A stretch of DNA of 63,921 nt, filler included, from Mitosporidium daphniae (lineage: Eukaryota): NCBI RefSeq assembly GCF_000760515.2. It is 6 parts of 6 records of this genome, joined end to end, with 100 filler letters (N's around TTAATTAATTAA, not from the genome) between each part and the next. Parts side by side here need not be neighbours in the genome. Positions count along the whole stretch, not along the records: positions 36,994 to 48,689 come from NW_013546694.1; 5 more parts are not named here. One strand, 5' to 3'. The notes beneath the pieces were generated by a model. It was not told the DNA's origin and ran no database searches. It was given only the letters and a program-made list of their open reading frames with translations. Of the stretch, positions 7,491 to 63,587 are shown in pieces. The position numbers and the translations under genes were made by a program. The first letter of the stretch is position 1. Each line of letters opens with the position of its first letter.

Positions 7491-7500
7491 AAAGTTGAAA

Positions 7501-11604: not shown

Positions 11605-11640
11605 ATTTAATTGAAATCTTTTTTATTTCCACGCAACAAT

Positions 11641-12174
11641 ATGACCTCTTGGCGGAGAGACCGGATTGTTTTCGTCGATCCGGACGACTCTTCCGTTCCT
11701 TTTTGGTGGCCGGCCTTGGTATGAACCTTGGCGTCTTTTTTGTAGGTTGTCCCGTTTGAAGAGCTCGCAATATTTAAGGATGCCATGGGCGCAACGATCC
11801 CATCCTTGCATCCCGGCCAGCAATTGGTGTGCTACTTTGAGGATGGATCCTAGTACGTTTTTGTGTTTTCTAATTATAGCTCCGTCGTTCGTGATCGCGA
11901 CCTCGTGGCATTTTGCCCAACAGAAGATCCATTCCTTACATATTCACGAATGCAGAATGTGGGCAAAGCAAAGCGCGCCTTAAACCCAACCACAACTCCA
12001 GCATCTCTGTTTTTGCAGGATAGAGCCGTCCAGCTGGCATTACAATATTGGGACACCGGGGTGGCCCCCTCGTATTTCAAATGGCTGCCGTTTGCATATT
12101 CGGACGCCAAACTGGAAGGGAAAATTGCAAAGGGAAACTTTAAGGGCAATGACGATTCAAGTTTATCCCATTAA
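11641..12174 (+). CDS. Small PWWP-domain protein; introns 11719-11745 and 11853-11879
   Basis: Spliced product MTSWRRDRIVFVDPDDSSVPFWWPALVVP...LVCYFEDGSYSVV; not captured as one ORF in the track. Confidence 0.7.
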
Positions 12175-12388
12175 AAATTCACATAGTCCTCAGCATGGCT
12201 TCCGTCTGCATGTGGAATTGAAGGCCAATTCCATTAGTGCAAGGATGAAATTTTAGTTGCATCATCATTGGACAATAAAATAAAATTAAATAAAATAAAT
12301 CGGTTTGAATTGAATTAAACCAAGCTAGGGTGTGCCAAGTTGAAGGGTATTCTGATGTGAAATTTATATTCGAGGCATCACAATGTAA

Positions 12389-12681
12389 ATGGGGTTCATC
12401 GGTGAATTGCCTGGTCTGATCTATGACCCGGAAAAGAAAAAATACTTTAAAAAGGCGCCGGTGGAGACTCGAAAGCACATCCAACCCCATGCTTTTGTAC
12501 CCACCATCTCCCCATCTTCTTTGCTGCAGCCTTTGATTTATAGCCAAATATATGATAAGAATTATTGTCCTCGCCAACCGGAATCAATAATCGTGGGATC
12601 GTTGCCCAATCCAGTGGAAATTCAGTATCCCTATATAAAGCTATTTGTAAGCCCTTTTATTTATTGGTCTAGGATGTCGGC
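12389..12681 (+). CDS. DCAF4/WDR21-like protein, 5' fragment (cut by gap)
   Basis: N-terminal ELPGLIYDPEKKKYFK resembles the conserved DCAF4 N-terminal motif. Confidence 0.55.
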
Positions 12682-12781
12682 NNNNNNNNNNNNNNNNNNN
12701 NNNNNNNNNNNNNNNNNNNNNNNNNTTAATTAATTAANNNNNNNNNNNNNNNNNNNNNNNNNNNNNNNNNNNNNNNNNNNN
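12682..12781. other. Artificial contig spacer (N-TTAATTAATTAA-N, 100 nt)
   Basis: Identical spacers at 24822-24921, 36894-36993, 48690-48789 and 60463-60562; contig lengths decrease in order. Confidence 0.97.
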
Positions 12782-13922: not shown

Positions 13923-14720
13923 TAAATAACTTCCACTCTCTATTTAAAATGAATCTCAAGTAACTGCACATTAAAACCTGGATCTTATTCTTGGCTGCTA
14001 TTGTTTAAAGGAACGCTTAAACGTTAGGATTATTATGCTTTATATTTTAATAAACGAAATTATGGAAAGGTACATTTAATCTGAGCGGCTTTGGGGTGAG
14101 AGTTCCCGGTATTAGGTTTTAATTGACTTTTAATCTTACAGCGCGAGAAAGCCCAAGTTTAGCCTATCACTATGTGTTATTTCATCATAAAAACGGAATT
14201 ATGGCGAATGAGATACTTGACGGTGCGAAGAGCCATCAACTGAGCGTGGGATTGGCCAGCCAGCTCAGTATTAGACGTAAATCAATAGATGTCAGCAGTT
14301 CAATGGTTCAATCAAAAACCGAAATACTTCCAAGGGTGCTAATTAATGGATTCATGCTCTGAAACTAAAAACAGCAACCACAGGATGTGGTGTTACAAGT
14401 TTAAATATGTAGATTAATTTAGCTCGATTAGATGAATTACTGCTGAAAGTGCATCAGCAGTGTGCAAAATCTAAAGAAATTCTCGAAAATATTATATAGT
14501 GTTCGATAGGCGCTGTTGAAGGTTATGAAGCTTATCGTTAATCGGTGGTGAGTTTAACCACACAATTTTAGGTCATTTAATTGCCATATTAAAATTTAAA
14601 CCTTGTAAAATGTAGCAAAATCTCGGCACGTTTAAATGCACAATTTGTCTTTACTCGATTGGTGCAAATCAGGGGCCAATAATCCTCATTGTAATAATAT
14701 TAATTAAAAATTTGCAATTT

Positions 14721-17700
14721 ATGCTATCCATCTACACTTTTCTTTGCTTAAATGAGTATCATCAATAATTTTATCAAATTTGGGCTCTTTTTAGCTTCTC
14801 ATGTTTTTGTAGACTAAAAATTACAAGTAAAAAATATTTTTGAGCTCATAGCAGGCGATTTGAAGAACAAAATCGAGCCGATACAAACAAGGCCTTGAAT
14901 ACGATCTTTTTGCTTTCTAAGAAAACTTTACTCAACGAAATATACGCCATTAACTCAGACTTCTACGATAATATTATGGATACAATCATATAGGCCTCTA
15001 ACTTTGATCCATGTTCTATTTATGGGAAGATAAGGGCGTTGAAAATCTTGCCATCCAATACTGACTTAAAGGTCTTTGGAGATGAGACAAACTTTGTCTT
15101 TTCTAGTGTGAACCTACAGAACATTCAATTTTGGGTGAAATTTTCAAGGTCGTCTCTCTTGATCCCAAACATAATTATTTATGGAAGGTCCTCATTTAGA
15201 ATGGTGGAAATCGGTTAGAATATCACCCAGGATACCAAATTGGCCCAAAGGAAAAATATTCACCCGTGGTCATATATGAGGGTTCTCGATTTCTTATCAC
15301 TCAAAACTGGGTTGAAGCCGCATTGAATTTTGGAAATCATAAAAAGGTTATCACGAACTTCTATCCCAGACTTTTGGGCGATTTTCATCAATCAAAAGTA
15401 AAATATGACGTTTTTATTGATGCCTAAACAACAGAAACAGACAGGTGCTTTTTCATCGTACCATCGATATTTTACCTTTAAGCTTGTGAAGAGCGGATAT
15501 AAAAAGATCTTTGCAGCTGCATTTTCAAGTGTCATGCAGCATTTTGTATCTCAAGAATCCTCTTATTTTGTTCCAGAATCAAATCTGTCCAAGTATTTCA
15601 TTTATTGTACATGGAAATCAAGCTAGTCAATTAAAATGCACGAAGAAGCCAACAACTTTATCTATAAAGCATTTTTATCTGATAAGAATGTATTGAACGA
15701 GAAGAGAAAGGTTTACTTTTTAATATGGAATGTCGATCTTGCCGATATGATGTTCAAATATCTGGTTGAAACGAAATAGTATGCCTTTTTGGGCATCTAC
15801 AAGTAGTTTACGACAAATTCCAAATTGTCAAGGAGAAAATTATTTTCGACGCCGTTCCTAAAACATAGTAGATAATACAGGCATAAAAACATTTTTTTCA
15901 ACATGATTGGAAGCATGTCTGGCTCGAATTTCACGAAAAGCTACCCGCTAATGAGACGTTTTATTGAGAGCTTCCCCATTTCGAGTATGAAAATGGAGCT
16001 TATGATTCTGGAAATTTCAATGAATTTTCAAATTCGATTTTTCATTTTTTAAGTAACGAAATCGGATATCAGCAATGCTTTATGGGCAAAGAAATTTATC
16101 TGATTTCATATCTGGATTCGCTGAAATTTTGGGTCATACTGATGCTAAAAAACTGTGCGTCATCTTGTGTCGATAAAATGTGCTTTCTTTGCCTCTTTTT
16201 CACCAAAATACTGGATTTATTGGACTATGAAAGTCATATGTTTATCTACCAGAAGAATATCATTTTGGTTGCAATTTTCTACACCTACAAAGAAAGATAC
16301 ACCCGACATTTAAGGACCTCTTTAAACAACAATGAGTTTGATTTTGATTTTATTTACGATTCGCTATTAGACAAGCCATCACCCGCTTTTTGATCTTTGA
16401 ATCAAATTGATATTCTAAAAAGGACGCTACCATGCAATTTCAATATTTTTTCCCTTCTTTTGAACAATATCGGGGGTTTCTCTAAATTGTTTTCTTTATT
16501 GTTTAAAAACAAAACATACTGTGTGCTTCCAGATGAAGTGGAAAAGTCTTTAAAATTTTGTCTGATTAATAATCACTGAAGCGATCCTAATTATGAGGCA
16601 TCTCATTATATAATAATGGCATATATTTTAACAGCAATTGCGAACCCTATTGGCGCCAAGAATTCCAATAATACTGTGCTTCCGAAAACCTACTTACTTG
16701 ATCGAAATTATTACAATTTCTTGCACATTCTTTGTAAAGTATCCTGCTTTCGTACACACGGTTTGCTTGTTTCAGAGCCAACACGTATTTTGAGTATTAA
16801 ACTTTCCATTAATACTAGGCGAAATTTCCACCTAAAAGCAGATGGTTACACAAAAACTCTATAAATTTCATCACCGTCGGCGAAGGAAAAAGACCTTTGC
16901 ACTTGATCAGTCTGGATCACACTTTTTTCATTGTTTCTTATTTTCTGAATTATTTACAAGAAGATTCTGCTTTTGCCTTATCTGATGGTGGAATGAAAAC
17001 AATTTATGGCTTGTTGCTCAACCGATTGGCACCTATTGAAAGGCTTGTAAAGATCCTGCCTCGATTTATCCAATATTTTTTGTTCCGGATCAATAGAATT
17101 TTTAAAATATAGAATACTCTAGATGGTAAGGTCAATGAGGCTCTACCTCTGGCTATGCGATATTTTTTTCTTTGGAAGCATAAAACCTACCAAGAAATTT
17201 CCATACATAGCAATCACACTGAAAGGCTTAGGCTTTTAGCCAATTATCAAATCATTCTAAATCGTTTGATGTCGATTGAAAAAATCGAGCTCTACATTGG
17301 CGATTTTGAAAACGGTTTCTTAAGCGCATTTGAGCCAATTTTTGCCTTTATCAGGCTTAATACTTTGGTACTTGAGGGAAAGTTTTTAATCTGTCCAATA
17401 GCCATCACTTCTATTTTCGGTGATATCTACTTTTGAACTCATAAAGTGGTTCTTTTTCAAGGACGAAACTCGCTATGTTCTTGGCATGTATTACGATCAT
17501 TGGAAGCTTCCCTCCTCTAACTCTAAATGCGCACGCCAAACAGAAAAAGGAATCCAAAATTTGGCCAATGGAAATATTCTGGTTGATGGAGAACGGATAC
17601 AACTTTCGGGGTTTCCATTCAGCAACCAGCGTTTATGGAATATTATGAATTTCTCAGAAACGATAATTATAAGCTAGAAGCTACGCTACCTCGGCGTCAA

Positions 17701-18082
17701 GATGATAAATCAATATTCCGGATGCTCAAATATAACAGCATGCATTTCTTTGCAAATGCAAGCGATGCTTTTTTAGTAAAGGATGATGAGAGTTGCATTT
17801 ACATTCATTTCTCTCGGCCTCGCGGCTGCAGCCACCTACCGCTTACGGAAAATGTAGCAAAATCATGTAGGCGCTGAACAAAAGGAAAAATGAGATAAAT
17901 CAACAACACTTGCGTTGCAAGTTGGTACTCGTGACGTGATAACGACTGCTCAACCAAATGTCACTAAAGGTGGAAGCTTGCGTAAACCCGATGGCAACTC
18001 AGCTTCTGCTTGCCACGCTGGTCTTGTTGAGACCGCTGTGGCAGTCATATTCTTGCTTTTTCTAGCAGTAGAGCGAGGATGA
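14721..18082 (+). pseudogene. Large AT-rich fragmented coding region (probable pseudogene or frameshift-ridden assembly)
   Basis: About ten short ORFs tile the + strand with frame switches and almost none on the - strand; ends in hydrophobic AVAVIFLLFLAV followed by an AATAAA cluster. Confidence 0.5.
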
Positions 18083-18732
18083 TGCCAATTTTTTAATAAA
18101 ATAAATAAATCAACACCCTAAGCCTCGGATCTTTTTGAATACTGGAATAGATTTTCCAATCCGGGTTCTTAAATTTTCGGTTCCACAGCAATTTTCAAGA
18201 TCGAGTTTTTGGGGCATGTAGCCGTTTTCAGGTAGTTATTTCAGAATGCTTGCCGTATTCATTCAATATAAAGCGCATCACATGCGCAGCACAGCCGCAC
18301 TACTAAGTAACAAAGTTTAGAATTTCACGATGCTCCCGAAACTTGGCTCTACATGGCTGCAAATTGTACACGACACAAGGTAAATTTAAATTTTAACCCT
18401 AATGTAAATCAACCAATCAAAACGAATGTTGCAATCCGTTGCTTCAATCTGTTGTTAGCTTCAAGTCCAAAACACGGGGAAGGTCAACTCGTATGAAATC
18501 AATATGGGTCTAGTAATCCGCAGAGCAGATTTCATATAAAATTTAGGATCGTTTGACACCATATCAAACGCAGTTCTAGTGATATCTGCAAATCAGATGC
18601 GCGTTCAAATTGCAGGCATGAGGAAGGAGCCCGCGCATGCCAAATGGGATCCAAAGAGCTCCCCCGCCCCATAATGGCATTATAAGATTATTATTTACTT
18701 TATTATATTAACAGTTAATATCGACAGATGAA

Positions 18733-24697: not shown

Positions 24698-24821
24698 CGA
24701 TGGGTTAGCCTTCGATGGTTTAGCCTTCGATGGGTTAGCCTTCGATGGTTTAGCCTTCGATGGGTTAGCCTTCGATGGTTTAGCCTTCGATGGGTTAGCC
24801 TTCGATGGTTTAGCCTTCGAT
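24698..24821. repeat. Tandem repeat, 15-bp unit CGATGG(G/T)TTAGCCTT alternating to give a 30-bp higher-order unit, 8+ copies, running into the contig end
   Basis: Read directly from the sequence. Confidence 0.97.
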
Positions 24822-24921
24822 NNNNNNNNNNNNNNNNNNNNNNNNNNNNNNNNNNNNNNNNNNNNTTAATTAATTAANNNNNNNNNNNNNNNNNNNNNNN
24901 NNNNNNNNNNNNNNNNNNNNN

Positions 24922-32424: not shown

Positions 32425-33366
32425 TTAATATTGGTTTTCTCTCAGGTTTTCGTTCTTATTCGCAATTCTTGTCGAAAAGTGGTGATTTACATCGCGGTGG
32501 TTCGCTTCATCTGCGCGTATAGCGAGAACTACGTCTCTTAAAGTTGCGTCGCTTTGCAGGTTCCAGTAATCAATGGCAATAGAGGGAGCGGGTGTATTTT
32601 CAATCCTTCCCTCATCAATTTCCTTGAGGAACGCAGTATATGAGATTACAGCTTCCTCTTCAAGGTATCCAACCATTCTGTGGGCCGTCTTTGGAGTTAT
32701 CAAATAAAAAACGGCAAAAAAGTTGAGAAAAATTCCTTGCACTGCAGTAACCAGGATCCTTTCGGCCAAATTTGGTTTTGTTATTTTCATCCAAGTCATC
32801 AAATGCATCCTCTCATTTTCAGCCTCGAGTAGAAGCTGATGAATCCATCCGCCATCATGTTGCTAGCAATAGGACGATATTAACGATACCATTCGTCGCA
32901 GGGATCGCATATGCCTCACCATTGCTGCAACCATCCCAGGAACTGCCGCAACTGTCTCAAGCACAATGGCACGATGTACATACCTTTTTTGGAAAAAAAG
33001 ATCTGCAAATACTCTCAAAAATTTTACCAGGCCATAAGCAATCTTGTCGGAGAAAGTATCTAAAGTTATCGAAGAAAATGCCAAAATACCGGCTTGACGG
33101 TGGTACCCAATTGAAACATCAATGGATTCAAGTGTTTTTGTGCTAAGCGGTGGATTGGATGTTGAGAATTCAAGGCGAACAGGTAGCGGCTTAAAAAAGT
33201 GCATATTAGGGGCAATTTCAATATCCTTTTTATCGTTTGTTGAAATTGACTTGCCAAACAAAAAATCAGACACTGGTGCCAATAGGGTTGACGGCCTTTT
33301 GATTCCTTTGAAAACCGAAATGACGCTTCCCTTACGAAATTTGTTCATGTCAAATATTTTGTTCAT
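32425..33366 (-). CDS. AOX: Alternative oxidase (2 introns)
   Basis: [49 protein letters not shown] di-iron motifs. Confidence 0.96.
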
Positions 33367-33783
33367 GCTCGGAAAAAGACGGATTAAAAATTACTATTTG
33401 TACATCGACACATTTTACACATTAAATTGATCAACGCGTGCATCAACAATTATTAATGTTTATTTTGAAGTAGAACAGTTGCAATTGATTAAAATCCAAA
33501 TCGTGTAATCTGTACTCTGCATGCAAAAAGATATTTATATTAAAATCGACCGGTTTAATATCCATGCTCGGCTGCTTGAAGATTTATCAGAATGTCTCTG
33601 ATGCTAAACCATTTTCTATTGGTAGCGATATTAACAAAAATTGGAATCTCAAAACAGAGGGCTTAATATATTTTCTGGATCGCCTTATGAATATTTCTTC
33701 ACATAAAAGACCGGTCCACTGGGTAAGTTGAGAGCTCTATTTTAAAAAAGCACCATGCCACAATGAAATATGTTCGATTTCCC

Positions 33784-33840: not shown

Positions 33841-36800
33841 CTAATTTTGATTTCAAATTCCATGAACGTACGGCTCGTGTTGGGAAACGTTATGAATGAG
33901 AAATATATAAAGATCGCCTTGCTCTGCCTCATTCTTACCTTTTTTTCACTATTGGTTTACCTTCCTGTGTTAAAAAGAAATGAATCCAAGCCAAAAACAT
34001 CGGAGGTCTCCGATTCGATGGCCTCAATCGTAAGATGGGCCGAAGATAAATCTGTAAATGCTCAAAAAGAATTTTTTTCTCATTTTCGGAGCTTCAAGGC
34101 CAGTGTATTACTATTTCTCTCAAAGAATAAGCACTACTCCAACACACGGGTCCTTTGGATTGCATCAGACTCCATTTTTCTTTTGCTAATAAACCTATTG
34201 ATAAGGAAGAACCGTATCTTATATCCTCAACTCAGCAGTATCGGTCGTCGATTTTCGCTCCTCATGGCAATTCGTCTTCTTTTTCGAGGGTTTATCACAC
34301 TGTTTTCTGAGGATAGGCAAATCTTCCCCTATTTTGAGCTGTTGATGTCTCTTTCTATTGCATCAGTCTATGTGCATGTGCGTGGCATTTTCGTGACTCT
34401 ATTTTCAGTTGTTTCAATTAACATGCTGTTTCTATATGCTAGGCGGGAGCTCTTCATTGATACTAAACAACATGATCCTTTTTGGAAACCTGAACAGAAT
34501 CTTGAAACTGACATCCTCGACCTTGTCCCAAGGCTAGAGTTAGGAAATCATCAGCCTCCATTGCGAATGCTAAAATCCCCAGAAAGAGCATACGGGGCTA
34601 GTTTATCTCTTGGAATGGGCTTAGGATCCTTGCTATATAATCGTTATAATAGAGCCATTGAAAGGCGAGAGCTGAATTGGGTTAGATTTGCAAATATTTC
34701 AGTAAATCACTTTGAAGCAATTCCAGGGGTCTTTTCCGATTTTAGACAACTGCAGTGGCTTGAGGCTACAGATAATCCAATTTTTCTTTTGGAAATTTCT
34801 AGCCTTCCCCCCTCCTTGATTGGGCTCTCTCTAAGTAACTGTAAACTTATCATTGCTCATTGGGACAAAAATACCATTTGTACTCTTCGTTATTTAAATC
34901 TTTCTACAAACGCTCTGTCCATGCTTCCAAGTGAGCCTCTTGAAGCACCATTCCTCGAAGTCATTGATCTTTCTGGAAATTTAGACCTTAATGTTGTTGT
35001 TGAAGATTTTATTTTGCAAATGCCCAACTTGGAGCTTATTATCCTTCCAAATGGTGACAGATATTATCCTAAAGGTAACAGGGAGATCCCAATTTCCCAA
35101 CTAACAACTGCAGATGCTATTTGTAGGCATTTAAACCAATTTTATCATATCGCTCAAGATCCTCTTGCGGATCATCTTCTTGTCAATCAAGATTTCCAAG
35201 ATCTTTTTCAGGCTAAGGCTAAGTTTATCCAATTACTTTTTATCGCCCTTATCTTTCAGCCTTTACTTTTTGGCATATTCTTTGACCCTGTAAGTATTGC
35301 TAGGCCAATGTCTCAAACAATTCCCATAAAATTTCCCATGCTCTCTCAGTTGCAACTTTTGAGGCGATTGCCTCGCTGGAAGCATGGGTTCGTTCTCCCA
35401 TTTATCTTGGGAACTACTGCTTGGTTTTCTGCATGGTATTCTGTGCGCTTTAAAGCTTACTATTCGCTTTCTATCAATTCATACCAGGAAGAATTGTTAT
35501 CTATTTCGCTTTCCATTCTAATTGCCGGAATACTTTTAGGTTGGTCTTTTCTTTATCGCAATACAAAGCTTTACGCAATGCAAGCCTTCACACCTGCGAT
35601 CTCAAAAAACGACTATTTTGCAACTTCGGTTGCTCTAGAAAACAGTCTTTCGGTAGTCCTCGATATCGTTGATCTTCAGTATACCAAACTGTCCGAAGAA
35701 GCTTTTATAGAATATTGCTCCATAAGGATTTGGATTCCCTTTGGAAAATCAAACGCCAATAATTTATGTGCAACTCCTGCAACTCATTCTCTCAAATTGG
35801 GAAAGTCTGGTCTCTCCACGTCACAGATGGTTGAAGAGGCTCTTCTCCGATTTGGGCCAAATAAGAAAAAAATAGAAATAGCGTTTTGGCCCTTTTTCTG
35901 GAACTTAATTCTAATTCCATCCAACTTTTTCTTCCTTTTCGTATCTGGGTTTGAAGCTGTTATTGACTGTTCATCTATTGATGGCCTTAAAAATGTATTG
36001 TCATTTATACGGCCTACCATTATCTTTGGATTTCCAATCTTTACCCGTGCTTTTATGGAGATATGGGTTCACTCCTCAAAATATGACGTCATTGCAATGG
36101 TTTTGGACCTTTATAGATTTATCCCACTTGACTCTACAAAAATCTTGGTTAAAAGACAAGGGAATCATGAGAAATATATTTCCCATTCGGAATTACTTCC
36201 TGGTGATCTTGTTTTTATTACGATGGCAGGGATTATACCTGCTGATATGTTAATACTCGAAGGACAAGCTGTTATCTCGGAGGCTATGCTTACAGGCGAA
36301 TCGGTTCCCGTCCAAAAGATTGCAGCACCCACAGAAATACTAAATGCCATTCTTGGTGGAAGAAAATCCAATATTGATGAGATTTCAAAATACGTTCTTT
36401 ATGATGGAACCTTTATGCAAGCAATTTCTTCTGAAAGTTCTTGTGTTAGGCGTATTAAGGCAATTGTCCTAGCAACTGGATTTTCAACCAGAAAAGGTTC
36501 AATAATACAGACCATCAGAATTGGAACTCGGCGTGCATTTTCTACGTCTTCAAATGCACAGTTGAGCATTATTGCCTCTACCATTGCTATAGTGTCGATT
36601 GCCAGTATATATTTGAAAGAATTCCTGTTTAAAATTGGAGACTATATTCTAGATATGCTCATTGACCTTTATAAAGTCAATATTGGGAATCGATTTGATA
36701 AATACTTATCCGTCGTTGAATTGGAAGACTATGGAGAAAGTGCGACTCTATTCAAGCATAGTAGTAGTGAGCATTCTATTTGGACCTTATTTTCCTCCTC

Positions 36801-36893: not shown

Positions 36894-36993
36894 NNNNNNN
36901 NNNNNNNNNNNNNNNNNNNNNNNNNNNNNNNNNNNNNTTAATTAATTAANNNNNNNNNNNNNNNNNNNNNNNNNNNNNNNNNNNNNNNNNNNN

Positions 36994-37203
36994 GAACCTT
37001 TTTGTCTATTTGGAACTTGAAAAAGGCCACTTGCTCAAAAAACGACGTATGGAACGGATGTATATGTCTATTTATCATAGGTCCCCATTGAGGCTAGGGT
37101 CAATGTGCTGCCAATGTAAATTTTGTACATCCGAAATTCCATGTAAAATGCCTGCGTTCAATTAAATCATCCGTTTTCAAGTTCCTAATAGACTAAAAGG
37201 TTC
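36994..37203. mobile_element. MITE-like element with 30-bp imperfect terminal inverted repeats
   Basis: 36994-37023 vs the reverse complement of 37174-37203: 28/30 identical; about 150-bp non-coding interior; the contig starts inside the left arm. Confidence 0.65.
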
Positions 37204-38216
37204 ATTCCACAAAGTGTTCTTGTGATTCTTTTGCTACATAAATTTCCATATATGATCATCGATGACACTCTTTGTTTCCGATTCTTTACTCTATATGCGT
37301 CATCAGCTGATTCCATGTTCGTCCGATGGCATCCATATGGACACAACTTGCCAAACTTTCAAGGTTCTCTAGAAATTTTGTCTTTTCAAGTTTGTAACAA
37401 GCAAAAATTGTAGTAGTTTTGGTTCTAACCTCCCCCTGCCCTCCCCCCATCGGGGGCCGGTATCAAATTTCAGACAATATTGTGGCCGATGCTTTTGATA
37501 TTCTGGAAAATCTTTTTATCCAAGATTCTTAAAAATGCGCCAGATCTTTGGAAAAGCAGGCAAATCATGTTGCGTATGGCAAAATGTTTTATAAGTTGTT
37601 TATAACCGTAACCTAGCCCTGAATAGCATCCATAGACTGGATTTGATGTTAGGATAAAGGCAATCCAAGGCCTATAGTAACCCAGATTTTGGGCAACATC
37701 ATCCCTATTGGCTTCGAAATCATTCTCAAACTATTGCTTTAGCCATATCAGAAAATAGGATCACAATATTTGCTATGTTTTCAACATATCCAAGAGCATC
37801 TTTACTATCCACATGTGTATAAAAAGCTACCCAGAGATTAGGGATTTTGTAGGATTGACAAACTGGCTATGAAGAGGACATCTTTCTTGCAGTTAAAAGT
37901 GCTTTAAAACTTGTTGTGACATGCATTTATCAAGCCACCAACCCTTGGGGTCTTTATTTACAATGCCACGTAAATTTTACGGGCTATGGCAACTTAAATC
38001 AGCGCCAAGCATAGGGAAAAGAGGCGTACGTTTTCAAGTTGATCGAAAAGTGTTGATAATTTTACACTTGTCACATATGTCGCCAAAAGCCATGAACATT
38101 TCCACGATAACCTGTTTGACAGCGCTATTAATTTTCATTGAAAGGCGTCGTTTCAATTTCGCACATTAGTTCAATTAAAAATACGCCCCTAAATTTTCCT
38201 AATTTTTGGTCCCACA

Positions 38217-38732
38217 ATGTCGGTGGCCGGGTTTTTTCGGCCCATGCGCCGAGGGCTTGTATGGTGGCTTTATGAGCAGAATGGCACGAGTTCCAGGCTA
38301 AACAAATCCGTCCGCATAGGCATTGCGTCTGGCTTTTCCATCGGGGGAATAATGCTTTATTTGTTTCTGACGAGAGATGACACCGGAGATGTGTCTTTTG
38401 CGTCACAAACATTATTTAATCTGCAGGCAAGCGAAAAGGCACAAAAATTACTAGGATCTCCAGCTAAAATGAAGATACGGGCAGGCTCGTATGTTGGACA
38501 CTCAAGCATGTTCTTTGGCGACGGAAGTACTCGCATCAAAATCATCGTCGATGGGGAGCAAAAATCGGCTCTTGTTGAAGCCATGGCGAACAGAAAGGGG
38601 TTCTATTGGGCGACACAGCTTCTCAAGGCCATCCCGATTGTTCCCGATTCTTGCGTGAACGCCAATGCACCCCTATATTGCCTTGACGAGCATGAAGAAA
38701 TCATCATTGTAAACGAAATTGGCATGCAATAA
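38217..38732 (+). CDS. Mitochondrial Coa1/Tim21-family protein
   Basis: Arg-rich N-terminus, single TM, then LQASEKAQKLLGSP...IVDGEQKSALVEAMANRKGFYW pattern. Confidence 0.6.
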   Translation: MSVAGFFRPMRRGLVWWLYEQNGTSSRLNKSVRIGIASGFSIGGIMLYLFLTRDDTGDVSFASQTLFNLQASEKAQKLLGSPAKMKIRAGSYVGHSSMFFGDGSTRIKIIVDGEQKSALVEAMANRKGFYWATQLLKAIPIVPDSCVNANAPLYCLDEHEEIIIVNEIGMQ

Positions 38733-38801
38733 ATTTAAATTTACTCCCGTTTTTGAAAAATTTTCTCCTTTTCGCTTACCATCAAGGGTCTGTTTTCTCG
38801 A

Positions 38802-40058
38802 ATGTCTCAAAAAAACATCAAAGACACGCCAACCATTCTACTGGGACGCCCATCAAATACCCTCAAGATGGGGATTGTGGGTCTTCCAAACGTGGGAAAG
38901 AGCACTTTTTTCAATGTGCTAACTCGCAGCTCCGTTCCTGCTGAAAACCGCCCATTCTGCACGATTAATCCATCAGAAAATAAGTCTTTATTTTCTTTCT
39001 ATTACGTAGAGTTGCCGTTCCAGATGCTCGTTTTGATTGGTTATGTGAGAAATACGAGCCTGTATCTAAAATTCCGGCCTATTTGGTTGTCATTGATATT
39101 GCTGGACTGGTCAAAGGTGCCTCCAAAGGCGAAGGCCTAGGAAATGCATTTCTGAGCCATGTATATCCTGGTAGAATTTACTGAGTAGATTAAAGCCGTT
39201 GATGGCATATTTCATATGGTTCGAACCTTCGCTGATGATTCGATTGAACATGTTGAGGGAGACGTGAATCCAATCCGCGACATGGAAATCATTCATGACG
39301 AGCTTCGCTTGAAAGATGTCGAGTTTCTGACAAAACAGTTGGAAATTGCAAAAAAAAATCTGCGTGGGCATGAGCAGGATAAAATCAAAAAGCTGGAATG
39401 TGATACTATTGCAAAAGCTTTGGAAACCGTTACCTCTCAAAAGGACATAAGAGAAATCGCCTGGAATAACAAGGAGGTTGGATGCTGCTTCTTATCGGAT
39501 TAGATTGAAATCATCAACACACTGCAGCTATTGACTGCCAAGTCAATGGTGTATTTGGCGAATATGACGCCTGATGAATTTATAAAAAAGAAGAACAAAT
39601 GGCTTCCCAAAATGAAGGAGTGGATCGATGCCAAAGGCATAGGAGACACCCTTATTCCATTTAGCGCCGCTTTGGAGGGTTCTCCAGAAGAACTACCGAA
39701 AGGAGTCCATTCTACCCTTCCAAAGATCATTAAACTGGGATACCAAGCACTCCAGTTGCAATATTATTTCACGTCTGGTAAAGATGAAGTGAAAGCCTGG
39801 ACCATTCGCGTATCAGAAATTATGTTTACTAATTTGTAGAAAGGAATTAAGGCCCCACAGGCAGCAGGGGTCATTCATACCGATTTTGAGCGAGGATTTA
39901 TTGCTGCAGAAGTTATGGCATTTGACGACCTTCGCGAGTGTGGAACAGAGGCTGCGGTAAAGGCCGCCGGTAAATACATGGTCAAAGGCAAGGATTATGT
40001 CGTTAATGACGGTGATGTGATATTTTTCAAATTCAACGTTACTGGAAAAAAGAAATAA
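38802..40058 (+). CDS. OLA1: Obg-like ATPase Ola1/YchF (4 introns)
   Basis: [73 protein letters not shown]. Confidence 0.96.
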
Positions 40059-40158
40059 ACATTCAAGGCCATCGCCAATCGGCTAGGCGTAATTTAAGCC
40101 CTATATAAAGAGCGTTAACAGGAAACATCCTATGATTTGGAGCATAAAATATAAATGT

Positions 40159-40759
40159 TTATTTCTTGCAGACGGGCTTATTTCCTCCAGTAAGAATGGC
40201 GCGTTTCTGTATGAAATTAGCAAAAAAGCAAACCTGATGTTTGAGAACCATAACCTTAAAGCGTTCAAAATCTGTCAAGGTGGAGCGTCTCATCTTTAAA
40301 GCAGCCTTCTTTGCTACAGAAGTCGATTGGAAGGTCTCCATTATCTTGGACTTTTCAAGTGCCTTCTTCACGCTCGATGTGCGGGCAGCTCGAGGGATCT
40401 TGGCAACTATTCCTGTAAGTGTGATGTGGCGAAGAGAAACAACTTGACGGTGGACACCGGAGAGTGGTCCATCGATCAAGACGCGATTTTGGTCGACAAT
40501 CTCAACAATTACAGCTGGGGAATTGGCTTTTGGTCCATCCTTGAGAACAACGACACGGCCAACTTGGACAAAGCGAGTAAACACCTAAATGATGAACGAT
40601 GTTCAAAACATTCATGCTTGAAGGATATGCAAGCCATTTGGAAAAATTCAACCGTTCATGGAATTTTTGAACAGAAGAAAACATATGATGAAACACAAAC
40701 AATGCTGCAGAATGGATGAAATATGAACAAAATTAGCGTATAGCAGAGCAACGTACCAT
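40159..40759 (-). CDS. RPL14: 60S ribosomal protein L14 (eL14); exon 1 is ATG only, introns 40585-40756 and 40207-40233
   Basis: FTRFVQVGRVV, VIVEIVDQNRVLIDGP, LTDFERFKVM; ATG|GTACGT...TTTAG|GTG. Confidence 0.96.
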
Positions 40760-40834
40760 TTAGAATATTAAAATAGAATTTCAGTCTTGCAATTCTAACC
40801 CTAAGTTTAATTTTTTATCGACAAAATTAATTTA

Positions 40835-41950
40835 CTACCCTACTATTTGCCACAATTTTACAAGAGCATCATCAGATGCAGAAAGCAGTGTACCTGGAGT
40901 AACCCACGCAACCGAATTTACATCCCGAGTATGCGCGGATGATATTATCCCCATCGGGTGTAATTCGAATTTTGGGTTTTCCATTGAAACTGAGAAAAGC
41001 ACAATTGAATTTTCCCCCGTGCCAACGGCAATCACCAGTCGCCGGCCCTGAAAATCGAATTTTGAGCAAAGTGAATAGCATGGGCGAGACGATATGCTAA
41101 CCTGTTGCAAGCAATTCCAGGATGAAGATAAAAGCGATGACGAAGAAGGCCCCCACATTCTTGCGGTCCCATCCTCGGATGCAGAGAGCAGAAGATTGGA
41201 TGTCAACCATGCAACTTGCCATACAATCCCAGTATGGCCGGTGAGAAGGGCCTTTGAGACCCAGTCGCCATCTCCACGCCCGATGACATCAGAGTCGCAA
41301 TCAACCCAAACCCGAATGCTCTCATCTGCAGAGGCAGAAGCCATGATTCCCTATCAATCAAGAGGGGCACATGCTTACTGGATATTCTGGGTGAAAAGCA
41401 ATGCATTTCACATCTTGAGTGTGTTCTTGCAGAATGGCAAGCACCTCTTGCGATGATGATGAGAATGAATCAACTTCAATTGCCCAGAGCCAGATACTTT
41501 TATCCCTGCCACAAGTTGCTAAAAGATATGTGGCTGAAGAAATTAAGGAAACCGGAGCCCAATCAACGCATTTAACCTCGTTTTCATGCCCCTCCAGAGT
41601 GCAAATTAGGAAATAGGAGGAAACAGATGGGGTAGACGAGGCAGAGGCGCTAGATGGGGCAGATGAGGTATTCCAAATTTTTGTAGTCCCGTCAAACCCA
41701 CAAGCTGCAAAAAGACGGCCATCGTGCGAATAAGAAATCGATCTAACAGATTTTTTGGAAACTTCTTCCAGCGAAAAAGATTCGCTAGCGTCTATGTTGG
41801 TAATTTGAATGGTGCCATCTGCAGAACAAGATGCAAATGATTTGCAGGAGGGATGTGTTTTCACTTGCCATACCCTTTTGGAATGTACTAGAAAATAAAT
41901 GCAAAGAGCACAATACTTGGAAAGATAGCGCGACATTCAGTGTCCACCAT
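40835..41950 (-). CDS. CIA1: Cytosolic Fe-S assembly WD40 protein Cia1/CIAO1 (2 introns)
   Basis: LEGHENEVKCVDW, LATCGRDKSIWLW, LQEHTQDVKCIAFHP, AHTRDVNSVAW. Confidence 0.92.
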
Positions 41951-42122
41951 TTGAATGCACCTAAAATTTACGGTCCAGGTCCCATATTTTAAATCTGAAT
42001 TACCAGTCCTCAAACCCTAACCCTGGTGCTAACCCGATAATTTGCCTTGTTTAAAAAATTGTAAAAAAATTTAATATTTTTACATCCCCGAGCCGACCAC
42101 CCTCTAAAAATCCCATATCTTC

Positions 42123-43006
42123 ATGGCTAAAAGGAAAAGGCCAGCCCAGAGCAAGGGCGTAGCCCAAGGCCATTCAAAGACCGCAGATTTACCGATCAAG
42201 CAAGAACCCCCCAAAAGTACAGCTATGGATTCTTGCGTGGAACTCTATCAGTATTTTGACAAGACGGAGGGGGAAGGATGGAAGGCCAGCATATTGAGCG
42301 AAACGGTCAAAGATAGTGCATGCGACTATTCCAACATGATCCAACGGTTTATTTCCAATCAAATGACAGTAAGCTTATTCTCTCATGCGTCTAGTTTCAA
42401 GCCATAAATACAGGCCTTACGATGGGGAAAAATGGGCTACTTTCCTCGTCAGACTTTGTAAGATTGCTGGTTTTTCTGCTTGATGGCGGAAATACCAAAA
42501 TGACCGAAATGCTTAAATGTCTTTCGATCGCAGATCCTGTGTTCTCGGACATTAGATTTCCGAAAGAGGCATCTGGCATCGCCATACGAGTGATACTTGA
42601 AACCCTGCTCCCGCAACTTCCTCCCCATGAATCAATAAGAAATACGCTAATGCACCCTCCAATCCCGGTCTCTAATTCGTTTATTTTCTCCCTCCTGAAC
42701 GAGCTTCTTGAGTTGGGCGTGAATGTATATGCTGTCGAGTTTATTTCCCTGATCATCGATGTCTTCTTTGTTAGACTTTGCGTTCTTGACGAATTCGCGC
42801 CTCTAATTCTGCGACTGAAAACGTTCGTTAGTGATGAGCTCCAATTGTTGGGCCATACAGCGGTCATAAAAAATTTATTGTTCGCTGTTGACTGCCCTAC
42901 TGCTTCAGCGCATGCCTACATTAGGGAGAAAAAGCCCAATAAGCCGAGCTATTCATATGAAGCATTTGAGTGGCGTCTGATGAGTAGGATGCTGACTTCT
43001 AAATAA
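42123..43006 (+). CDS. Hypothetical protein (1 intron near 42369-42394)
   Basis: Two ORFs joined in frame by GTAAGC...CTAG; basic NLS-like start; AATAAA at the stop. Confidence 0.7.
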
Positions 43007-43016
43007 AAAGTTCAAT

Positions 43017-44651
43017 TTAGCTCCTTTTATAAATTAGTGGAAATATTTCCTCGACGCAAAACGAAATCGACGATTTGACAACGGCGCTTGATTCAGGGGT
43101 CTCGCCCATCTTTTCTAATATGGATCCCCTCAATTGCGCAAACAAGAGCTCAAGCCCCTCAACAACGGAAGGAGGTGTTGTTGGCTGTGCAGACTGGACC
43201 GAAGATTTTTGCTTTTTATGAAGAACGGGCATCAGAAACAAATCTTTGATCTCCGAAGGCGATTTCTCCTTGAAAATACGTACAAACATAATAGATAGGA
43301 AAAGCGCAAGCTTCTCGTTGCTTAGCAGCTCGTGCCATTCAATTCCCTAAAGTAAGCGCAAACAATCCCACTTACCTTGAGGGCACAAAATGATAGGGAA
43401 GATTTCCCCAGAAGATCGGCATAAAACGATGCTGCATTTAAAATTTCCCTGATGGAAACTTTTCCCGAAAGGGACCTAGAAAAGTCCCAAAGTGCATACA
43501 TAAAAGTAATTGTAGCATCAATGCCATCTACTCGCTGAATAAGCGTAGAAGAAAGGAGCGCATAGAATGGATTGTACGATTTTTCCTTCTTTACACAAAG
43601 CAAAATAATGGATGGAATTTCTCTCCTCTCCTTGGATGACTTGAAAATATCCAGCTTTTCGATTGCATCGAGAATGTCAGAAGAGCTTGATATTGCATCC
43701 AAAATTTGCCTTCTCAATAGCGTATTTATCCGTAAAGCAGATGCAAGAGATTTTTCCTTTGGCTCTGCTTTAGCATTTTTTCCATTTTCTTCTGTTGGTA
43801 TTGACTGTCCATTGCCATGCGCAGGGGATTTAAGGTTAGCCGGCCATGTATTATAAAGAAACTCACGAGGCACGATTGCGAGAGGATCTTGCAGCTTGAA
43901 TATTCCCTTTTGCTTCAATGCTTCTAGAAGAATCTTTTTCCAAGAGTCCAGCACCGTTGGGCTTCCTTTAATTATTTTCTTTTTGTTATTCTTCAAGTCA
44001 TCAAGTGCTTCAAGCATAAATTTGAACCGAGATCTAGGCAATCAAAACTGTATATACGTACCCCTGGATGGACAGTGTCCCCACAGCCGAAATTATGGAC
44101 TTGAGCGCCTCAGGAGCTTCTTGACGAAGCGCAGCACCGGCAACTAACAGTTACGATAACCAATCACAACCCTTTATAAGGACAAGCACAACTTCTACTT
44201 TAATTCCGTCCTCCATGTTGATGAACGGGTCTGGACATAAAAGCGACTCGCAAACTTCGACAATAAGAGATTCTGGCACCAATCGAAGGACATATAAAAA
44301 AGCTAGCATTTTTGAAAAAGTCACGCAAGTTGCCTTGACATTGGAGAAGCGTTTGAGTCGATCCACCAAAGCTGCTAGGAAATAGATGCCAAATTCCGCA
44401 TCTATCGTTTCTATCGATGAAAGCGCTACCACAAGAGTCGAATATTGAAGGATAAACCTATCCAATACATTTGGTGTTTCGATCAAGGCCTTTATAATCT
44501 GTTCCGATATGTTGCTAGTAAGATTTTGCCCATGATGCTGCAAATACAACTCCTCAAATGAGGCGATTGTGGAGCAAAAGTTCATATCAGAAAGCCGATT
44601 TAAAAGCCCCTTGATTTGCCGCTGTTGTGCCGTTGCGTGCTTTTGGTCCAT
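43017..44651 (-). CDS. SGD1: Nucleolar MIF4G/MA3 protein Sgd1/NOM1 (3 introns)
   Basis: QIKGLLNRLSDMN, SRFKFMLEALDDLKNNK, RINTLLRRQILDAISSSSD, EKSYNPFYALL. Confidence 0.85.
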
Positions 44652-44771
44652 TAAGAATTTTAATTTTTGATTTATTGCCAATCAAATATTTTGGCAAATT
44701 TTGATTGGGGATTCCCTGCCAACGTAAAATGGTTTTAAGCTCAAAAATGGCGGCCTCCCATCGTTATTTCG

Positions 44772-46221
44772 ATGCATCCGCCCATTAAAACCCAGCCTTT
44801 ATATTCGGCATTGCTGTCAAAACCCGTTCGCCCGGCCCGACATATACCCAATAGGTTTATGGAATGGAATGTAAAGGATTCCTCATCTCGCCTTGAGCTT
44901 AAAAATACAGACACAATTACCTTTTCAAGCGATTCTCGGCCAGAGTCTGCGTGCATGCGGACGGTAATGCCGGTAGATCCATCACATTCGATCTTCTATT
45001 GGGAGCTTTCTATTGTTGTCTCCTCATCCTCGGCGTCCCCCGTTGCGATCGGGTTTTCTGCTGCCGATGGGCCTTTAAATAGATTTCCTGGCTGGGAAAC
45101 AGGCTCCTATGGATATCACGGCGATGATGGCCATGTATTTGGGTCTGCTGGGCTTGGAACCCCATATGGCCCCACCTTTGGAGCTCCTGGCGATACCGTT
45201 GGAGCCCTGGTTGTCTTTTCAGGCACAAAAAAGGAGGAAAGCATTGTGCCATCAGCAACTTTGAGGTTTACTAAAAATGGAATTTTGCTTCCAATTGCTT
45301 TTACTATCAACTGGGATTGGTAAGTGTGATTTTACTTAGCGTCAGTGCATACTACCCAACCGTCGGCATGAGAGTGCCTGGAGACAGCATTACCACTAAT
45401 TTTGGAACCAGTCCATTTGCGTTTGACATTTCCGGATTTGTCCAAGTATCAGTGCCGCCATCAGTAACTTTGTTTAGGATAGGAAAGAGTTGTTAATGGA
45501 CCACATAAGAGCGGGCGAGCTTCCCTTTCTTTGCAAACACATTCCGGAATTCTTTTCCGAGTTTCTTGTCCATGCTAGGCATGCATTATCGCTGTCGTCG
45601 TTTGCCAAATCGTACAAAAGCAGAGACCAAAAGAATACGGATTTGATTTCATTCTCCATGCCCATTGCACATCAAATGCAGCAAAGACAGTCGCTGTCGG
45701 TGCTGATAAATTCGGGGAAAATCACCGAATCTCTCAACATTTTGAATGGCATTTCGGGCTTTCTTTCGTCGTGCCCAGATATCTTGTTTGACATCAAGTG
45801 TCAGCATTTCATCGAGCTGGCTCGGGAATACTTTGAACATCCCCGGCCACAATGTTTGTTGCCATTCGTCGAGCTGTCGCCGCTTTTATGTGCCGCCCAA
45901 TCAATTGCCGATGTATACTGCTTTTACAAACTGAGCTCCGAAAAAAAGGCCATTTTACGATCGCTGTTCTCGCTGTTTCTGTACATAGAAAGACTATCTC
46001 GGTCCGAGTTGCCATATGAGCTTGAAAAGTTACTAAAAGAGGAAAATAGAAGCGCGCTTTCGGAATCGATTTTGAAAAGGCTGGTGTTATATTCTGGAGA
46101 GAAGCTATTTTCAAATCTCGAAATGGCCGTGCGACACACGGCCATATTGTTAGAGGAGCTATATTCTCACACCGATTTTTTCCCCTCAGCTTTGCTGATC
46201 AAGCTTGATGACTTTATTTAA
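44772..46221 (+). CDS. SPRY plus CTLH/CRA protein, RanBP9/10 (Gid1/Vid30-type) (2 introns)
   Basis: FYWEL, FPGWETGSYGYHGDDG, YGPTFG..GDTVG, FTKNG, YPTVGM, NFGTSPFAFDI; C-terminal ILFDIKCQHFIEL. Confidence 0.85.
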
Positions 46222-46382
46222 CTGTCCAATAAACATCTAAATTTAACGGTGCAGTGCAGCAGATCGACAAAAGCTTTCAACGGAGGCCTCCTTTGGGAGC
46301 AAGGGCACAAGCGACGCTAGATTTGATGTTTTTATTAATTTTACAGGCAATATCGGCTTTGCCAAGTGAACGCACAATGTCT

Positions 46383-47673
46383 TCATTGAGCAGGCGTAGT
46401 GCTGGATGTCTGTCCTTGCAGCTTGACCATATAATCGCGCACAAAGATGCTTGCTTTGAGCAATCTTCTGGATGAGAACTTTTTGAATACGGTTTCATGG
46501 GCGAGGGGCCTTTGGAAAAATGAAATATAGCTTTTAGCACAAGGCATTAGTTGTGGCTCTGAATATCCCGAGAAAAATGACATTCTTTGGTTCTAGCAAA
46601 CGAATAAAAAGTCAAAGAATACCCAGTCCGTCTTTGGAAAGATCATTTTTCTTGCCAAATACATTGCTGACGCCGCCAATATAGAAGGGGGGTATGAGAG
46701 AAACGAATGCTCAAGCAAGGACGATTCTAAAAAATACTTTGCCAAAGTTCTCGTTTGAATATCATAATTGTCCCCCTAAAAGATTAGCAAGCCGATTTGG
46801 AAACTTTGGAGATCCTTCGAAGAAACATGTATGGATTGGGATAGGAAAGGTTGAATTGGAGCGAGTTGAGCATGTACACTTCGGCCTTCAGTATTTCCTG
46901 ATCGTCAAAAGTATTATCGGAAAGATAAACAAAATTTGAAATCGAGGGTGAAAGAATCTCTTCATATTTTGAGGCTATCAGGGTTGCCGTAATCCCCACC
47001 AGCTGCAACTTTGTCACCGACACCGTTCTTATGGACAAGAATCGATCTGTCAGGTAGACGGCCAGGAAAAGCGTCTCGGGAAGCAATTTGAGCTTCATGT
47101 TGATTTCAACGAGCCAGTCAACCAGGACCGATCGCATTGCCCATGTTACTTCTGTTTGGAATGAAATGTAATTGGGATCCGGCATGTTTTTAATCTACAA
47201 AATAAGCCGATTGATGGGATCGAACCTCAATTGATTTTAGATAGCGATATATTTCGGAGACATACTCCGGCGCCATGGTAGGGTCGCCAGCGTCGTCGGC
47301 GTCATACTCATCGATTTGAGCATTTTGAGGACTTTCACAAACCGAAAAAGGAACGGTTATCGATGGTCTTTCGTAAAAGTTATTCTAAACGAGTAAGAAA
47401 ACGGCATTAAATGTGATGAAGGCGGAATAAATCTACAAATTAAAATGCACTTACAATTTTAGATCTCCTAGACTGATTGTTGGAAAGATCTGAAAGAACC
47501 GAACGTTCTGTAGAGGTGGCGTTCTTTTCTAAAAACGAAGAAGATGCACCGTTCGGATTGCTGGTTGGAGCTACCGGTGCAAGGGAGCTCTTGGAGGAAT
47601 CCGTATTGGAGGGATAATCATTTTCGATATTTGCAATTGACTTTGTGGATTGTGTTCTCGTAAGAGGGGGCAT
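46383..47673 (-). CDS. B-type (G2/M) cyclin, multi-intron
   Basis: D-box RSVLSDLSN; DPTMAPEYVSEIY; MRSVLVDWL, ETLFLAVYLTDRFLS, KLQLVGIT..LIASKYEE, FLRRISK. Confidence 0.92.
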
Positions 47674-47946
47674 TATTTAAATTTTTACTAAAAACCCGAA
47701 ATATGCAGAATTGAAAATCGTACAACACAGAAATCAACTACAATAAAAATTTGATGGTCTACTGAGCAAGCCCAAATTGCTACGAGACACGCAAACAATT
47801 AAAAATTAACTTTAAAATCATATCTATGGTCACCGAACAAGCTTGCGCGCACCATATTAACGCTACCTAACCAACATTGCCACCACAGCACAAATTGGAT
47901 TTCGCTGAATTTATTGGGCGTTAAATAAACAACAAGACTTTGATAT

Positions 47947-48328
47947 TTATTCCTCAATACTTTCAGTTTGCAGACCTAAAGAAAAAGCAAGTTGATATTG
48001 TACCTTTGAAGGAGGCAACAGGAACATATGTTACTTGAGTGTACAGCTTCTCAGTAGCCTTTTCATCATCATTGCGACGGCGGGCAAGGCGAACGCGGAC
48101 ACGATGGGGCACATTACGAATGCCTTTCTCCCAAAGAGCTTTGTTTAGCTTGGGATCAAGGCGCACGTCTTTCGTGCCCATGTGCTTCACAGCAAAGGCC
48201 TTCACTGCTTTTATGGCGGTTGGCGCGCGCTTCTTGAAGCTTTGTCCATGGACGTGTTTGTGCAGATGTATGGTATATTCACGAGTTACCGTTTCGGAAA
48301 GTGCGGAAACTGGGGTCTTGTTGGCCAT
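47947..48328 (-). CDS. RPL31: 60S ribosomal protein L31 (eL31); intron 47976-48003; probable 5'UTR intron from 48460
   Basis: [40 protein letters not shown]; spliced end [12 protein letters not shown]. Confidence 0.96.
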
Positions 48329-48789
48329 CCCTATTCTGTAAGAATCTGAAAAACAAGAAGACTAAAGCAAAGCATGATTTTTCTTGCGCCTGCAGGGGCA
48401 ACAAAGAATGGATGTAATATGGCATAAGGACAGAGGGATAGGCGAGAAATCAAATCCTACCTGAATAAGAATTAAATTTAAAATTTAAGACTTTAATTTT
48501 TAATGTCCCAAAATGAGTTCCTTTCTTTCTTTCATGATGATGTTGAAAGAGGCTAGTGTTTCCAATACCCTTGAGGCAAAGTCTTTTTCTAGCTCAAGAG
48601 GATTGAGAATCCCCACCGCTTTGTTTCCGTTTTTCAGAGACAGGCCGTTATCTACAATTACCGCCCTCGTCATTACCTAAAATAATCTCNNNNNNNNNNN
48701 NNNNNNNNNNNNNNNNNNNNNNNNNNNNNNNNNTTAATTAATTAANNNNNNNNNNNNNNNNNNNNNNNNNNNNNNNNNNNNNNNNNNNN

Positions 48790-60462: not shown

Positions 60463-60562
60463 NNNNNNNNNNNNNNNNNNNNNNNNNNNNNNNNNNNNNN
60501 NNNNNNTTAATTAATTAANNNNNNNNNNNNNNNNNNNNNNNNNNNNNNNNNNNNNNNNNNNN

Positions 60563-62866: not shown

Positions 62867-62970
62867 GAAATTAAACTTTAAAATCGGTTTTGGTTTGCAA
62901 AATTTAAATTAGGCTTCCAAAGCTAATCTTGCGGACGCTCGTATAAGGCACATGTGCATACCGATAGGGA

Positions 62971-63288
62971 ATGGAGCATAAAAAGGCAATTCAAGGGTTT
63001 TATGTTGGCGAGAGGGTGTTATACCACCCGGTGGGCAGTGTTTCTTCGGCCTCTGTTGGCCGCATAACCCAGATCCTGACAGACCCGGAGCTGGTGGGCC
63101 AGGAGCGCCCTGTGACTATTCACGCCGATCCCTGCCATCCGAGAATCGTAATACAAAACGAGCATACCGGAAAGAAAACCGCCTACCGACCCGAGTCGAT
63201 CATTAGAAAGGTGAATGAAACCGAGAGCTTTCCCAAAGGCTTTGGCATTGCCGGCATTTCGGAGTTGGAAACCGAAGAGGTAGGATAG
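62971..63288 (+). CDS. Small Hva1-type Tudor-fold protein, copy 1
   Basis: GERVLYHPVG...GRITQILTDP...HPRIVIQNEHTGKKTAY. Confidence 0.7.
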   Translation: MEHKKAIQGFYVGERVLYHPVGSVSSASVGRITQILTDPELVGQERPVTIHADPCHPRIVIQNEHTGKKTAYRPESIIRKVNETESFPKGFGIAGISELETEEVG

Positions 63289-63326
63289 AGTGTTTAAGTG
63301 ATCCACACTAGGGTCGGCATATTCCA

Positions 63327-63587
63327 ATGGAGTATCCGCAACCGCGAAAAGTACATGGGTCCCCGTCGCCTGGACAGCGCGTTACCTATCACCCTGTTGG
63401 GGCGTCTCCGGTAACGTCGACCGGTCTTGTTGTTGATGTGATCACGGAGCCGAGAATTGTGATGGCCGGAGATAGAGGGGAAATAACCGTGCATGCAACC
63501 GAAAAACACCCAAGAATTGTGATCAGAAACGATCACACTGGGAAAGAGATCCCATACCCTCTAGAGTCTTTGGTCTCCGTCGAATAA
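63327..63587 (+). CDS. Small Hva1-type Tudor-fold protein, copy 2 (tandem paralogue)
   Basis: GQRVTYHPVG...GLVVDVITEP...HPRIVIRNDHTGKEIPY; AATAAA overlaps the stop. Confidence 0.7.
   Translation: MEYPQPRKVHGSPSPGQRVTYHPVGASPVTSTGLVVDVITEPRIVMAGDRGEITVHATEKHPRIVIRNDHTGKEIPYPLESLVSVE

Follow-up and report, generated by a model that had tools for sequence, protein, structure and literature searches.

Three ribosomal protein (RP) genes of Mitosporidium daphniae, an early relative of microsporidia, share a short word in what are likely to be long first introns. The word appears in sense orientation, is CAT-rich with a (C)ATCCRT-like core, and would lie 28–55 bases into the predicted first introns of RPL4, RPL14 and RPL31. 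Our best explanation, held tentatively and at slightly less than an even chance, is that the word is a putative downstream promoter site that a common activator would read as DNA, in a manner like that of the Localized Tandem Sequence Motif (LTSM) of vertebrate RP genes. The support comes from three genes and one outside locus, which is a small sample.

The window analysed here is a stretch of 63,921 nucleotides, joined from six parts of the genome assembly. A Pfam scan of 404 ORFs (144 + 131 + 129, covering exons of 36 aa or more) gave RPL4, RPL14 and RPL31 as the only RP genes in the window. Their gene models, predicted introns and neighbouring AT-only runs are as follows.

1003–2160, plus strand: RPL4 (uL4) gene, ATG at 1003
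1006–1125, plus strand: predicted RPL4 first intron, 120 nt, directly after the ATG, the same position as a 420-nt intron in a distant fungal RPL4 locus (L015)
966–996, plus strand: 31-nt AT-only run of AAATTT repeats 5′ of the RPL4 ATG
40159–40759, minus strand: RPL14 (eL14) gene from ATG (40759) to stop, with a second predicted intron of 27 nt
40585–40756, minus strand: predicted RPL14 first intron, 172 nt, directly after the ATG; the NCBI model differs
40764–40775, minus strand: AT-only run just 5′ of the RPL14 ATG, a likely start-of-transcript signal
47947–48328, minus strand: coding region of RPL31 (eL31), which encodes 117 aa and is interrupted by a predicted intron of 28 nt
48331–48460, minus strand: putative RPL31 5′UTR intron, up to 130 nt, proposed from sequence signals, with its acceptor at 48346, 48336 or 48331
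48470–48488, minus strand: 19-nt AT-only run, 9 nt 5′ of the RPL31 donor, a likely start-of-transcript signal

The gene models point to long first introns as likely in all three genes. The RPL4 intron at 1006–1125 agrees with the protein start in the NCBI model, MTASIAR. Removal of 40756–40585 from RPL14 gives the protein start MVFTRF, which resembles the MAFTKF of homologs, whereas the NCBI model (MDAP_001350) starts MNVLNI and requires a 13-nt intron with the same acceptor, which is probably an annotation artefact. The RPL31 start lies at 48328, and thus its 5′ intron would fall in the UTR. The RPL14 and RPL31 products show 99% and 100% identity, respectively, to proteins that bear the name Mitosporidium daphniae. 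Contigs from eight sequencing runs, none of which is listed as RNA, contained no splice joints over 37000–48680 and 1–12600. One contig (X19, from one study and RNA only by guess) spans 40363–40583 and ends 2 bases before the RPL14 exon edge, and we do not count it as evidence. Three strain differences fall in the RPL14 intron and one in that of RPL31, all of them outside the motif, although each comes from single low-depth contigs.

Elsewhere in the window predicted introns are mostly tiny. Across 20 Pfam-supported genes we obtained 49 introns with a median length of 29 nt, 41 of which are 40 nt or shorter and the longest 70 nt; these are predictions of a noisy parser, run without a length prior. 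This version replaced a self-trained gene parser that had overcalled introns (196). It placed shorter introns in RPL4 and RPL14, and none in RPL31.

Microsporidian RP genes are described as having AAATTT-like signals upstream and very short 5′UTRs (PMC2803860). In the window an AAATT-like signal was found 5–40 nt 5′ of the ATG at 17 starts, picked as trustworthy after viewing, out of 39 parsed regions. At RPL31 the signal lies 148 nt from the ATG, yet only 16 nt from the GTAGGA donor. Separately, two TAGGG words occur on the minus strand at 40842 and 40803, 83 and 44 nt 5′ of the RPL14 ATG, and we take these to resemble Tbf1/Homol-E sites; none occurs within 300 nt 5′ of RPL4.

The shared word and the tracts around it are located as follows.

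40709–40725, minus strand: 17-nt motif CATATTTCATCCATTCT in the RPL14 first intron, with three CAT units and a CATCCAT core, +31 to +47 from the donor
48405–48421, minus strand: 17-nt motif CATATTACATCCATTCT in the RPL31 5′ intron, +39 to +55 from the donor
1034–1045, plus strand: CCATTCTCTGTT, whose CCATTCT core lies at +28 past the donor of the RPL4 first intron; by itself not significant
40685–40725, minus strand: CAT-rich tract of the RPL14 intron, with 6 CAT and 5 YCAY in +20 to +75
1035–1078, plus strand: CAT-rich tract of the RPL4 intron, with 5 CAT in +20 to +75, a count reached by 0.25% of window tiles

A preliminary description of this DNA had reported these words, and both their letters and their coordinates proved correct: CATATTTCATCCATTCT of RPL14 and CATATTACATCCATTCT of RPL31 are identical at 16 of 17 positions, and CCATTCTCTGTT of RPL4 agrees with RPL31 at 11 of 12. 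The placement that it gave for CCATTCT was likewise borne out, at 41 (RPL14), 49 (RPL31) and 28 nt (RPL4) past the donor GT, in sense in all three. With up to 3 mismatches allowed, the 17-mer has only two places in the window, the RPL14 and RPL31 copies, while CCATTCT has 22.

We compared these matches with shuffled and real sequence. The local score of 14 between the RPL14 and RPL31 introns was reached by 1 of 1500 shuffles, whereas the pairs that include RPL4 were not significant (483/1500 and 301/1500). Against unrelated real tiles of the window, a score of 14 was found for 2 of 1234 tiles with the RPL14 intron, 0 of 1237 with RPL31 and 3 of 1236 with RPL4. A word of at least 7 letters common to all three introns occurred in 864 of 5000 shuffled trios, or in 151 of 10000 when the offsets had to agree within 21 nt, and a motif 7-mer fell within +20 to +60 in 1594 of 10000 RPL4 shuffles. 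The RPL14–RPL31 match thus has a level of ~0.1% per pair, or ~0.4% for three pre-chosen pairs, before correction for the many windows scanned; it is real, though not overwhelming within a large scan. Outside the motif the introns show no alignment, and a four-way alignment was uninformative. Two further matches were seen. Positions 1078–1092 (plus) of the RPL4 intron match about 40066–40052 (minus), ~90 nt 3′ of the RPL14 stop, exactly over 15 nt, probably by chance. A second 9-mer, TGAATGTTT, is common to RPL14 (40614–40606, minus) and RPL4 (1079–1087, plus) and is not significant alone; its opposite strand reads the core CATTC, and the acceptor lies 25 or 42 nt past the GT that it contains.

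CAT enrichment extends beyond the matched words. In the +20 to +75 interval, which was picked after the data were seen, CAT occurs 14 times in the three introns, where 3.07 would be expected, and ranks first among the 64 trimers (Poisson 4e-6), with 6 in RPL14, 3 in RPL31 and 5 in RPL4. There is a sense bias, with 14 CAT to 2 ATG. Outside the shared words 7 CAT remain against 2.2 expected (P 0.007). At the same distance from 19 non-RP predicted starts, in tiles that are mostly coding, CAT numbered 0–3, ATCCRT was found at 0 of 19 and CCATTC at 1 of 19, and the interiors of short introns were balanced, with 13 CAT and 13 ATG in 777 nt. YCAY was also in excess in +20 to +75 (9 against ~2.8 expected, P ~0.0006), with 5 in RPL14 and 2 each in RPL31 and RPL4. 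Judged on these sequences and the outside locus, the conserved core looks more like (C)ATCCRT, or CAT units, than like CCATTCT.

The outside locus came from a metagenome scan with RPL4, which gave 80 loci at 56–68% identity and no close relative. We read the upstream DNA of 30, most of which were plant genes or transcript-like contigs, and L015 was the sole non-plant genomic RPL4 locus among them with an intron after the ATG. Its RPL4 is 66% identical to that of the window and 80% identical to Calcarisporiella RPL4, and it grouped among non-chytrid fungi, although the placement is not firm. ATCC or GGATG words are also scattered through four other loci (L001, L006, L026 and L044), whose context is unclear and which the counts leave out. 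A prokaryote scan gave an archaeal L4 and a 776-nt fragment, and three viral-contig scans gave no RP genes. Separately, proteins of a sister species (P0002, P0124 and P0193) were seen at 80–95% identity.

The L015 first intron is 420 nt long and directly follows the ATG.

L015:9578–9997: RPL4 first intron of the outside locus

It carries ATCCRT in sense at +13, 30, 38, 42, 51 and 55, with five ATCCAT in +30 to +55, whereas the RPL4 intron of the window, its orthologue, has no ATCCRT. The intron start is the densest ATCCAT tile in the 14 kb locus. A prediction set beforehand, that ATCCATT or CCATTC would lie in +20 to +60, held in L015 (shuffle P 0.002 and 0.010). The word also occurs on the opposite strand, at +83, 95, 162 and 393, and the opposed words bring no folding gain (z +0.32). 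Upstream of the ATG there is a TATA-like word at -62 and a pyrimidine tract at -33; if the tract is taken as the transcription start, the words lie at ~+49 to +91. The branch-site word of this intron is a normal fungal one, and the locus shows no sign of tiny introns.

The preliminary description had proposed a common cis-element for RP genes. This is partly supported, by the RPL14–RPL31 match, the CAT enrichment in three introns, the near absence of the word at the 19 non-RP starts, and the same word in the same place in L015; the RPL4 7-mer, in contrast, is weak alone. In the arrangement that we favour, a downstream promoter site, transcription would begin in or beside the AT run, and the core would then fall ~40–65 bases downstream; in the window introns the core lies 37–55 nt past the end of the AT run. 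A shared activator would bind the word as DNA, not as nascent RNA, at a fixed distance from where transcription begins, and the introns would be long so that the site stays outside the coding sequence. We prefer a DNA site because the L015 word occurs on both strands without folding gain, which is as a DNA site would allow, because it varies as ATCCRT, and because its likely position is LTSM-like.

NonO and SFPQ, the proteins that bind the LTSM, are known from animals. The LTSM is described as a sense-oriented ATC-7-ATC that 35 human RP genes carry in intron 1, at +52 to +82 from the start, and that also occurs in mouse and zebrafish; NonO/SFPQ additionally bind RNA and 5′ splice sites, and reporter activity depends on distance, dropping when the LTSM is shifted from the start (PMC3262029). 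In our hand count of the 35 sites in the human table of that paper, 31 end in CATC, 23 begin with ATCC and 19 begin with ATCCR (PMC3262029). The window word is similar in its place in a (predicted) RP first intron, its sense orientation and its presumed short distance past the start, and its core, like that of L015, resembles the human flanks, which mostly read ATCC and CATC. However, the tandem itself differs: ATC-N6/7/8-ATC is absent from the RPL14, RPL31 and RPL4 introns, the L015 intron has one N6 and one N8 ATC pair but no N7, and each window copy contains at most one ATCC, while the CAT units within the 17-mer stand 11 nt apart. Since the strict LTSM tandem is absent, we do not file the window word as an LTSM, although it may work like one.

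A fairly unlikely alternative is that the word acts as RNA, as a YCAY-type cluster behind the 5′ splice site, bound by a KH-domain-like protein, which would aid splicing of a 120–170 nt intron in a cell of 25–30 nt introns and couple RP output to splicing. Inside the window this would explain the sense bias and the long-intron setting, unusual where ordinary predicted introns have a median of 29 nt, as well as a DNA site does; the 14 to 2 strand bias and the predicted single-strandedness would suit an RNA element equally. The motif core is predicted to be 0.66–0.73 unpaired, against ~0.5 in the surrounding sequence, and YCAY is in excess by the counts above. Microsporidian long introns are reported to be spliced far better than short ones (PMC6349667). 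The YCAY clusters bound by KH proteins (Nova, and the fission-yeast Rnc1, which binds UCAU/YCAY repeats according to PMC6946801) are similarly clustered, in sense and predicted unpaired, but the known fungal case is a 3′UTR stability element. The L015 array argues against RNA, since its word lies on both strands and varies as ATCCRT, which misfits such clusters, and ATCCGT breaks YCAY. Moreover, L015 has its normal branch-site word and no tiny introns, so that a tiny-intron problem would not account for its array. YCAY numbers just 2 in each of RPL31 and RPL4, and the Mer1 enhancer word is absent. We found no stable or shared fold in the RPL14, RPL31 and RPL4 introns (z 0.15, 1.06 and 0.02). 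Small hairpins in the 3′ half of the RPL14 intron (40600–40685, minus) are kept in the centroid fold, the whole region being no better than shuffles. By eye the RPL31 motif could pair with the stretch that spans its acceptor and ATG, but this was disfavoured in the ensemble and was rejected.

It is also unlikely that chance and composition suffice, by which pyrimidine- or CAT-rich introns would yield a lucky 16/17 match and a random RPL4 7-mer beside an unrelated L015 microsatellite. The insignificant RPL4 pairs and the frequency of the 7-mer in RPL4 shuffles fit this account, there are further matches of score 14–15 in the window, and events at the 0.4% level are expected when many windows are scanned. 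The L015 array is possibly a decayed (ATCC)n microsatellite; translated ATCC repeats were not found among the fetched proteins scanned. On the other hand, the match connects two of the three introns, which are related in function, and does so at similar offsets, the CAT excess remains outside the shared words and has no counterpart in short-intron interiors, and the L015 array agrees with the prediction.

An unproductive splice path is a decidedly doubtful reading. A near acceptor past the motif, together with a tiny terminal intron, would let the motif set the balance of productive and decay-bound RP mRNA. Each intron does have a YAG past the motif (AG at +50, +69 and +60), use of the near acceptor in RPL14 or RPL4 would lead to an early stop, and the parser took internal GT donors 25 (RPL14) and 42 nt (RPL4) before the acceptors, both preceded by TGAAT. 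However, any AT-rich intron of 120–170 nt is expected to allow a parse of this kind, given how common GT and AG are. The motif-to-AG distance also differs greatly among the genes, and one common factor fits a shared word better than gene-specific feedback.

RP introns frequently host snoRNAs, but a hosted small RNA (a snoRNA or a member of the conserved long-intron family of microsporidia) of which the motif is part is highly improbable, since the three introns showed neither an Rfam match (E up to 1) nor any C or D box word, and have no conserved fold and no alignment outside the motif; no snRNA was found within the window. The microsporidian Poly-A/S23 long-intron family resembles our case in having long introns among tiny ones and one host RP gene, and the 152-nt S23 intron of M. 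daphniae is said to hold the internal region of the family, but the internal stem-loop, C/D-like words and extended branch point of that family were not found in the window introns (PMC6349667).

The TEA/ATTS site is CATTCY. The likeness to this site noted in the preliminary description fits the three window copies, all of which contain CATTCT, but TEA/ATTS sites are single, the window has 100 copies of CATTCY, and the L015 intron has no match on either strand. A looser likeness to the yeast Rap1 RPG box was only partial: against the Rap1 consensus RPL31 scores 11/13, whereas RPL14 and RPL4 score 9/13, and ten sites of 11/13 occur in the window. RPL31 carries a Rap1 half-site (by the same consensus), one of two in the window. 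Fungal RP promoter sites, namely those of Rap1 (HOMOL1/RPG box), Tbf1 (Homol-E) and Rrn7 (Homol-D), are similarly short DNA words common to the RP regulon (PMC6173580, PMC8688861). However, Rap1 sites are described as lying 200–500 bp upstream of the start, with their use in RP genes a gain of Saccharomycotina, whereas the window words all lie downstream (PMC6173580, PMC8688861). The fungal survey screened intergenic regions, and the word 'intron' is absent from its text (PMC6173580, PMC8688861); thus an intronic site would escape its view. By its own account, the LTSM paper followed these motifs so far in vertebrates (PMC3262029), and the open PubMed Central papers and bioRxiv gave no such motif in Mitosporidium and no LTSM-like site in fungi.

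We also considered a wider proposal, which we think somewhat unlikely, that RP genes inherited from an opisthokont ancestor a control site, (C)ATCC(R), placed ~50–80 bases past the transcription start in the first intron. The LTSM, the arrays of early-diverging fungi and the minimal copy of M. daphniae would then be one element, which would explain long RP first introns in compacted genomes. RP-gene regulation is a standard example of promoter rewiring. If the word is general, it offers a testable reason for the long-noted retention of such introns in reduced genomes, and a way to look for the binding factor outside animals. Should it act at the RNA level instead, it would reveal how a spliceosome tuned to 29-nt introns copes with those of 120–170 nt.

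Finally, we note other features of the window. Five N-linker gaps of identical build lie ~12 kb apart (12682–12781, 24822–24921, 36894–36993, 48690–48789 and 60463–60562); these are joins, and thus the gene neighbourhood across each is uncertain. A tandem array with a 15/30-nt unit (8 copies of 15) at 24698–24821 abuts one of them. Positions 14–120 have many divergent contigs, with depth above 100 in two runs, and are likely a multi-copy repeat. The region 14000–18700 has low GC and short ORFs with no Pfam match, and may be an unannotated or intron-rich gene. A weak Rfam H/ACA match (SNORA9, E 0.15, far below threshold) at 35265–35389 (minus) lies antisense in a long ORF and is likely chance. 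A small gene at 62968–63587 (plus) has two Hva1_TUDOR Pfam domains, and 32425–33390 (minus) encodes an alternative oxidase according to Pfam.
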